Below are positions 2,309 through 3,484 of a stretch of DNA of 3,484 nt, one piece after another. Positions within the stretch are counted from its first letter, which is position 1, and the number at the start of each line of letters is the position of its first letter. The DNA lies in the NCBI RefSeq assembly GCF_003334385.1, contig NZ_QOWN01000093.1; one strand, 5' to 3'. This DNA comes from Escherichia coli. Lineage in GTDB: Bacteria > Pseudomonadota > Gammaproteobacteria > Enterobacterales > Enterobacteriaceae. Below the pieces are notes generated by a model that saw only the letters and a list, made by a program, of their open reading frames with translations, searched no databases and was not told the origin of the DNA. A program made the translations under genes and the position numbers.

Positions 2309-2427
2309 ATAACCACGTCGTAAAAAATGCGCAGAACCCCTGAGGTGACCTCCGGCAGGACACTGTCTCAGGCACTCTGTGATAACCCGAACGGTCATCG
2401 CCGGACTGACGATTGAATTCCCGGCGT

Positions 2428-2449
2428 TGTTTTTTTAATGTAAAAAACA
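2428..2449. promoter_or_regulatory. AT-rich dyad (TGTTTTTT-TAATGT-AAAAAACA) in the divergent intergenic region; candidate operator or promoter element
   Basis: Perfect 8-bp inverted repeat with a 6-bp spacer, midway between the divergent Gp2-like gene and the small zinc-ribbon ORF. It overlaps -10-like hexamers (TTTAAT/TAATGT), with a TTGAAT -35-like hexamer at 2412-2417. Confidence 0.25.
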
Positions 2450-2481
2450 GGTTACGGATAAGGCGTGGAGAGGGAGCGATC

Positions 2482-2673
2482 GTGATATGCAAAAAGAAGT
2501 GCAGGGACTGTGGTAACGCAATTACTCATAATACAGTATGTTGCCCGTATTGTGGCGCTGTCGACCCCTTCGGTTATTACCGGAAGACCGATCGTCTGCT
2601 CTGTTTACTGACGTTACTGCTGCTGATTCTGGTTACCGTTTCAGGCGTCAGTGTATTTGTACTGTTGCAGTAG
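2482..2673 (+). CDS. Small zinc-ribbon membrane protein, 63 aa (GTG start): N-terminal C-x2-C-x9-CC-x2-C ribbon and C-terminal hydrophobic helix
   Basis: GTG at 2482 is preceded by GGAGAGGGAG (2467-2476) at 5-nt spacing; the track's TTG start at 2413 has no RBS. Translation: (M)ICKKKCRDCGNAITHNTVCCPYCGAVDPFGYYRKTDRLLCLLTLLLLILVTVSGVSVFVLLQ, with stop TAG at 2671-2673. The run of ~23 hydrophobic residues is consistent with one transmembrane segment. Confidence 0.5.
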   Translation: MICKKKCRDCGNAITHNTVCCPYCGAVDPFGYYRKTDRLLCLLTLLLLILVTVSGVSVFVLLQ

Positions 2674-2701
2674 GTTACAGGGGAGGGATTATCAGGAATC
2701 G

Positions 2702-2730
2702 GCGGGGCAGAGCGACCCGCTGCGTTTGTT
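2702..2730. terminator. Possible intrinsic terminator between convergent genes (GCGGG-9 nt loop-CCCGC followed by a T-rich tract)
   Basis: 5-bp GC stem at 2702-2706 / 2716-2720, followed by TGCGTTTGTTGT, ~30 nt after the small ORF stop. The stem is short and the loop long, so this is weak. Confidence 0.25.
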
Positions 2731-2785
2731 GTGCCAGACAGTAACGCACCGGCTCCCTGCAAAATGGTACCTGAATCAATCACAG

Positions 2786-2986
2786 TCAGGTATTCCGCCA
2801 ATCCGTGATCGAATCGAGCGGAATACTCAGCCCCGACAAATACGAGTCCCCTTCAGAAGATACAGGCCGGTAATGCCTGAACGCCTGCCCCTCTGTACAC
2901 CATTCCCTTTTGATTTCGAATTCTTTGTTGCCGTTATACTGCTTAATGTTCCCGATCTTCCGGTGCACAGATAACACCGGAGTCAT
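2786..2986 (-). CDS. Hypothetical 66-aa protein (low confidence), immediately downstream of the Hha-like gene
   Basis: ATG at 2986-2984 lies 19 nt after the Hha-like stop, with no clear Shine-Dalgarno. The translation MTPVLSVHRKIGNIKQYNGNKEFEIKREWCTEGQAFRHYRPVSSEGDSYLSGLSIPLDSITDWRNT has no recognisable family, and several rare codons (AGG, CGG, GGG) lower confidence. Confidence 0.25.
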   Translation of the reverse strand: MTPVLSVHRKIGNIKQYNGNKEFEIKREWCTEGQAFRHYRPVSSEGDSYLSGLSIPLDSITDWRNT

Positions 2987-3005
2987 CGTAGCGCGGATTC
3001 AAGAT

Positions 3006-3484
<479 letters not shown>

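Follow-up and report, generated by a model that had tools for sequence, protein, structure and literature searches.

A perfect 9-bp inverted repeat downstream of an hha paralogue in Escherichia coli is probably a by-product of an IS21-family relic

The window, by which we mean the whole 3,484-nt stretch of E. coli DNA that we analyzed (contig NZ_QOWN01000093.1), matches E. coli genomic islands. Positions 2400-3484 are 99.7% identical to strain G1/2, and positions 2677-3005 have 100% identity with Nissle 1917 as well as with many further strains. RefSeq annotates G1/2 and its relatives with the 3' part of an IS66 transposase gene, zinc-ribbon genes, a gene of the inovirus-Gp2 family, and a convergent pair formed by a small zinc-ribbon ORF (plus strand) and an hha/ymoA-family paralogue (minus strand); an IS3-family element starts near position 3408. 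Relatives carry intact versions of the hha paralogue of 58 to 70 aa. The interval 2677-3005 has no RefSeq annotation in any of the genomes listed, and it is here that the repeat described below is found (Table 1).

Several parts of the island differ between strains. At positions 1-1164, the 3' 940 nt of an IS66-family tnpC gene (plus strand) adjoin a truncated zinc-ribbon pseudogene. In Nissle 1917, the corresponding IS66 is inverted relative to that of the window and one more zinc-ribbon gene is intact, and the island edge has therefore been rearranged between strains. Related strains without the IS3-family element cease to match near position 3408, where that element begins. Past the small zinc-ribbon ORF, we also noted a short hairpin, rich in G+C, that leads into a T-rich run on the plus strand (positions 2701-2733, GCGGGGCAGAGCGACCCGC TGCGTTTGTTGTG). 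The position of this stem is kept in divergent islands with a different sequence (CGGGGCAGAACGCCCCG). The hairpin is a candidate terminator for the plus-strand gene; a simple scan gave no call.

The initial annotation placed the repeat inside the 3' end of a minus-strand ORF of 66 aa, and it does fall in the last 14 codons of that ORF. Only a core of about 18 aa (..NIKxYxxNKEFEIKREWC) is in frame among relatives, which differ in the start and the tail; in some close relatives the frame is closed by a stop after 37 codons. The ORF has no match in Pfam or NCBIfam and no PGAP or RefSeq call in the genomes compared. Judged from these comparisons, the ORF is probably not a gene.

Two further observations concern the same interval. 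At positions 2897-2945, a block of about 50 nt (CACCATTCCCTTTTGATTTCGAATTCTTTGTTG.CG.TATAC.GCTTAA) is invariant or nearly so in 10 of 10 island variants, in surroundings that are 75 to 89% identical and contain indels. Its minus strand keeps one frame (..NKEFEIKREWC), with no conserved start or stop and no Pfam or NCBIfam match, and the block could be what is left of a small gene, or else a conserved element (RNA or DNA) downstream of hha. At about 2950-3005, about 58 nt that lie just downstream of the hha stop in L006-L011 and L075 are missing from the window and from L003-type islands. This deletion point holds the ATG of the 66-aa ORF as well as a CTTCCGGTG/CACCGGAG hairpin.

Table 1. Coordinates of the features discussed, numbered from the first nucleotide of the window
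Feature	Position	Strand	Basis or remark
Small zinc-ribbon and transmembrane ORF	2479..2676	+	PGAP 'hypothetical protein' WP_032218841.1; convergent with hha
Possible left copy of a 4-bp target duplication, TCCC	2754..2757	.	Right counterpart GCCC at 2830-2833, imperfect
72-bp miniature derivative of an IS21-family (ISSso4-like) IS, ends fused, 5'-TG...CA-3'	2758..2829	+	Pairwise alignment; indel
Left-end part: tip and first IstA-binding repeat L1 (about 2773-2793)	2758..2795	+	31/38 identical to TGCAAAATGGCATCTGAATCGATCGCAGTTTGGCATTC
Second short inverted repeat, TACCTGA (2768-2774)/TCAGGTA (2786-2792)	2768..2792	+	Sequence reading; seen in folds
66-aa ORF	2786..2986	-	ORF list; last 14 codons and stop read from the relic
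Arm 1	2790-2798	+	GTATTCCGC; straddles the deletion junction at 2796
Junction base (C) between left-end and right-end parts	2796	+	Aligns to neither IS end
Right-end part: inverted R1 and 14-nt tip ending in CA	2797..2829	+	31/33 identical to GCCAATCCGTGATCGAATAGAGCGGAATACGCA
Inner imperfect dyad CAATCCG-TGAT-CGAATCG	2799..2816	+	7 pairs with 2 G-U on minus-strand RNA; within repeat R1
Arm 2	2818-2826	+	GCGGAATAC; in the right tip, terminal CA 3 nt away
hha/ymoA-family paralogue, N-terminally truncated	about 3006..3188 (to 3230)	-	PGAP annotation of G1/2 (pseudogene)

The two arms had been described as exact reverse complements at 2790-2798 and 2818-2826, separated by a 19-nt spacer, and we found both the pairing and the coordinates to be exact. 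No other perfect 9-bp inverted repeat occurs in the window at a spacer of up to 100 nt. As a chance model, we used 200 dinucleotide-preserving shuffles of the window. These yielded a mean of 0.335 such repeats per window at spacers of up to 20 nt, in agreement with the earlier estimate of about 0.3; 23% of the shuffles contained at least one, and the mean rose to 0.6 per window at spacers of up to 40 nt. By itself, the 9-bp repeat is not significant and is within chance expectation.

We found that the stem is longer than the initial annotation recognized. On the minus-strand RNA it runs further inward, through a 1-nt bulge and 7 pairs (2 of them G-U), to a loop of AUCA. This hairpin has a folding energy of -25.8 kcal/mol (z = -3.9), and none of the 200 shuffles folds as well. 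The plus-strand fold (-16.4 kcal/mol, z = -2.3) is much weaker because of the two G-U pairs. The inner dyad is of a type (AATCG-ATCA-CGATT) found in each transposase-binding repeat of a full-length insertion sequence described below, and the TACCTGA/TCAGGTA repeat shares 3 nt with arm 1. Beyond the stem, the minus strand continues with CUGACUGUG and the plus strand with TCAGCCCCG, neither of which contains a U-tract, and a promoter and terminator scan found nothing at the repeat. We rejected an intrinsic terminator as a candidate: a G+C-rich stem followed by a U-tract was not found, and the scan was negative. An Rfam scan of the whole window with E values up to 10 returned only a spurious match to a eukaryotic lncRNA elsewhere.

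We scored an indel at the repeat in the intergenic alignment of ten island variants, which was later extended. A block of about 76 nt that includes the repeat is present in the window, L003-L005, and L075 and is cleanly absent in L006-L011, in which the gene order is the same. The site thus exists as empty and filled alleles. The sequence of the empty site is CCGGATCCCCGGT; that of the filled site, CCGG(A/C)TCCC[72 nt]GCCCCGAC, is 72 + 4 nt longer. L075 carries ACCC at the right of the block. The inserted DNA lies about 80 nt downstream of the stop of the zinc-ribbon ORF and about 180 nt downstream of the stop of the hha paralogue.

A search with the block alone gave partial matches, up to 45 of them in a single genome. 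The right third of the block matches sites just downstream of istB, at the right end of annotated elements. In full-length copies, the genes are labeled 'IS21 family transposase' and 'IS21-like element ISSso4 family helper ATPase IstB'; the name ISSso4 as we use it comes from these PGAP labels, not from an ISfinder comparison. The tips of the element are defined by the target duplications of full-length copies. The KMi025 copy, which runs from TGCAAAATGGCATCTGAATCGATCGCAGTTTGGCAT to GCCAATCCGTGATCGAATAGAGCGGAATACGCA, is bounded on both sides by gtccac (a 6-bp target duplication, GTCCAC), and the pOkiPb01710_4 copy has CCGTGAT at both flanks (a 7-bp target duplication). The right tip is set by two full-length copies, whose flanks diverge immediately past ...ACGCA. 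The termini of the full-length copies are TGCAAAATGG...GGAATACGCA, and we found five direct repeats of about 20 nt at the left end, spaced by 22 to 24 nt, and at least two at the right end. IS21-family ends have such a multirepeat architecture, the repeats of which are recognized by IstA, and integration of IS5376 in vitro requires two complete repeats per end (PMC10122671).

Pairwise alignment to a full-length copy showed that the left-end part of the block matches the first 38 nt of the element and the right-end part its last 33 nt, with istA, istB, and all else between the two ends absent. The block begins with TGCAAAATGG and ends with GGAATACTCA and thus has TG...CA termini. It keeps L1 and R1 alone rather than two or more repeats per end, and it encodes neither the IstA transposase nor the IstB ATPase, which makes it a relic and not an insertion sequence. 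As a short, noncoding sequence whose ends match those of a parent transposon, it resembles a miniature inverted-repeat transposable element (MITE). Between the left-end part and the full-length element that we found, identity is only 82%, and the exact parent is not among the copies compared; the left-end sequence that would characterize this parent is TGCAAAATGGTACCTGAATCAATCACAG.

This alignment also accounts for the composition of the arms. Arm 1 is composed of the 6 bases GTATTC with which the left-end part finishes (GCATTC in the IS), then the junction C, and finally GC, the first 2 bases of the right-end part. Arm 2 is unchanged in the right ends of the full-length copies. At position 2815, the A of the IS is replaced by C in the window lineage, which improves pairing on the minus strand. 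We found the 72-bp block in about 1585 of 5426 complete E. coli genomes. The full-length element (at least 80% of its length covered) is present in 226 of them and fragments are present in 1777; the block is therefore usually an orphan.

Using a pattern that leaves both arms free, we scanned metagenome contigs and obtained 86 loci. These and the E. coli loci fall into four sites, which we call A to D. Site A, downstream of hha, carries the 72-nt form in 74 copies. Sites B (chromosomal, near a GTPase gene) and C (on a plasmid) carry 65-nt forms in which the ends are fused at another junction (GGTTTGG/CCAA), and their flanks are unrelated, beginning exactly at TG and CA. Site D has a truncated form of 60 nt. 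The 72-nt form was found at one locus only and not as the dispersed copies that mark a MITE. We found no convincing clean target duplication at site A, B, or C; the best candidate is TCCC/GCCC at the block, compared with 6 to 7 bp in the full-length copies. Species-representative genomes gave a single match, a 65-nt copy of the plasmid type on a contig that is labeled Collinsella and is probably enterobacterial DNA. With one match in these genomes, the family is therefore narrow.

We noted additional arrangements around these sites. In many metagenome contigs, the 65-nt element of site B lies about 4.6 kb from the 72-nt element and is inverted, for example, in L027 (2713-2749 on the plus strand and 7371-7414 on the minus strand), and the paired arrangement recurs in L029, L041-L043, L058, L060-L062, L071, L072, L077, L091, and L092. 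The pair brackets hha, a helix-turn-helix gene, a 199-aa ORF, and a 502-aa ORF (probably YfjI-like) and resembles a composite-transposon layout with the two left tips facing outward. Nissle 1917 has the 72-nt copy only. At site B in L016, we noted a direct repeat of 13 nt, CGCACGTAATGAT, with one copy 113 nt upstream of the 65-nt element and the other across the right tip of that element (2437-2450 and 2563-2575); this repeat is too long for chance. In L085, a metagenome contig of 1.9 kb, the left flank of site C (plasmid) is joined to sequence of site B (chromosomal), namely the element and its right flank. This contig is likely a chimeric assembly across the repeat, or else a recombinant between the two mini-elements, and we left it out of the analysis.

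The initial annotation had proposed that a functional dyad or stem would show both arms conserved, with compensatory changes, and would be contradicted by one arm that diverges freely. The latter is what we found. At site A, arm 1 is GTATTCCGC (9/9 pairing) in 70 of 74 copies, GCATTCCTC (7/9) in L075, and GTTTCTGC, with a 1-nt deletion, in L030, L065, and L092; arm 1 is thus altered in 4 of the 74 copies, in two ways, and arm 2 is invariant in all 74. The state in L075 is closer to the left-end consensus of the IS, GGCATTC, and may be ancestral. In an alignment of the six distinct sequences, which come from a small and largely clonal sample and so give weak evidence of low power, no pair changes on both sides, 3 are hit on one side, and 13 of 16 are invariant. 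The altered copies refold into an alternative palindrome of L1 and R1. We also set aside a conserved structured RNA, with 0 compensatory pairs and no Rfam family, a comparison whose power is low with 6 distinct sequences.

The earlier reading of the repeat as a protein-binding dyad or an RNA stem thus survives in part. The DNA does derive from IstA-binding ends, with arm 2 and the inner stem lying in the right terminal repeat. The 9-bp dyad, on the other hand, is not a conserved unit: arm 1 spans a junction and varies without compensation, and the block is absent in syntenic islands.

Taken together, these comparisons suggest that the inverted repeat is an incidental by-product of a 72-bp IS21-family relic, and we consider it likely that it is ordinary mobile-DNA debris and not a dedicated regulatory site. 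The block is an internal-deletion derivative in which the left and right ends of the IS are joined, with one repeat per end (L1 and R1). Arm 1 lies over the fusion point, and arm 2 belongs to the right tip. The ancestral junction was probably GCATTCC.C, as in L075 and as expected from the left-end consensus, and one or two substitutions would then have brought the common lineage to the perfect 9/9 match. As DNA, the block would be an orphaned pair of IstA binding sites with a single repeat per end and is probably no longer mobile; as RNA, it would form a hairpin merely from being built of inverted repeats. A dedicated function of the 9-bp dyad would be unnecessary to explain these features. 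An origin of arm 1 by template switching, in which the right tip was copied across the inner dyad, was set aside: arm 1 can be aligned to GGCATTC, with which the left end naturally continues, and the junction plus point changes suffice.

The strongest competitor of the relic is a domesticated RNA hairpin, in which the 16-pair stem-loop in the 3' part of the minus-strand hha-paralogue transcript would serve in exonuclease protection, processing, or termination. REP, ERIC, and Correia elements can act as such RNA 3' signals. The minus-strand fold, which none of the shuffles equaled, is consistent with this possibility, since the stronger strand is that of the hha transcript, as is the position of the block, past the hha stop and between convergent genes. 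The perfect 9/9 state is also the commonest one, and that state, the stronger fold on the minus strand, and the C at 2815 would fit weak selection for an RNA stem. Against this, no U-tract follows the stem, the terminator scan gave no call, and Rfam gave no match at the repeat; the block is missing from many syntenic islands with intact hha paralogues; arm 1 decays without compensation in two lineages; and the upstream hha gene in the window is itself a pseudogene. We judge a domesticated hairpin to be unlikely. REP/BIME palindromes and intrinsic terminators resemble the block in forming a stable stem-loop downstream of a gene and between convergent genes. The block differs from them in its unrelated sequence, in lacking a U-tract, and in a position that is not conserved among related islands.

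Alternatively, the block might be an active nonautonomous element, a MITE that IstA and IstB mobilize in trans, with the hairpin or dyad serving in synapsis or cleavage. Its termini are exactly TG...CA, its presence is polymorphic, and its 65-nt sisters share one junction at two or more loci with flanks that are unrelated from the tips outward, all of which would be expected of such an element. However, the 72-nt form is confined to a single locus, sites A, B, and C are without a clean target duplication, and most carrier genomes lack a full-length copy. Furthermore, the block has one transposase-binding repeat per end, compared with the two needed by IS5376 in vitro (PMC10122671). Present activity of the block is thus very unlikely in our judgment.

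We regard it as highly improbable that the repeat stems from coding constraint on the 66-aa ORF or arose by pure chance in unique DNA. The shuffle expectation of 0.34 per window and the location of the repeat within the ORF would allow it, but the start and tail of the ORF are not conserved, the tail is IS derived, the ORF has no family match, and the DNA is not unique, being homologous to a repeated mobile element. Finally, an operator bound as a dimer by an island-encoded regulator, such as the nearby helix-turn-helix protein, is extremely improbable: the dyad is perfect, its 19-bp spacer sets the arm centers 28 bp apart, and related islands have a helix-turn-helix gene nearby, but the arms originate from IS ends, arm 1 lacks conservation, related islands retain the regulator without the dyad, and the site lies downstream of both neighboring genes and not in a promoter position.

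The relic of fused IS21-family ends can be compared with described elements of several kinds. With the terminal repeats of the IS21 family (the ISSso4 family here, with IS21, IS100, and IS5376 as studied relatives), the block shares TG...CA termini, homology at both tips, and the repeat of about 20 nt that is iterated at both full-length ends. In contrast to a full-length IS, it has no istA or istB, one repeat per end where the full-length copy has five (left) or at least two (right), and no clean target duplication of 4 to 8 bp, and its left part is 18% diverged.

Bacterial MITEs and internally deleted IS derivatives are, like the block, short, noncoding, and intergenic; they have two transposon ends, show presence/absence polymorphism, and form a hairpin when transcribed. 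Correia elements of Neisseria, ERIC/IRU, and the IS-derived MITEs listed in ISfinder are examples. Unlike MITEs, the 72-nt form occupies one locus and not many, and mobility of the block is only putative. Searching the literature on ISSso4 and IS21-derived MITEs, we found no description of this element or of IS21-family MITEs in E. coli, which does not by itself prove novelty.

A further possibility is that the relic has been co-opted. In this scenario, the stem-perfecting changes (C to T in arm 1 and A to C at 2815) would have been selected for their effect on the minus-strand hairpin, which would set or protect the transcript 3' end of an hha paralogue that was acquired horizontally and encodes a nucleoid-associated modulator; an IS21-family-derived MITE would then act as an RNA 3'-end element, and the 65- to 72-nt mini-elements would perhaps form an undescribed nonautonomous class in Enterobacteria. 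We think that this combination is quite unlikely. If the hairpin does affect the hha-paralogue transcript, it would be a small case of mobile-element co-option, which the present data do not require.

The ordinary explanation, on the sequence comparisons made here, is that the block is an unannotated IS21-family relic. Recognizing it as such is of value mainly for annotation and would explain the hairpin, the indel between variants of the island, and why the 66-aa ORF has a spurious tail. For the IS21 family, the 72-nt and 65-nt forms suggest that these elements can decay to minimal fusions with one repeat per end by at least two independent deletion routes.
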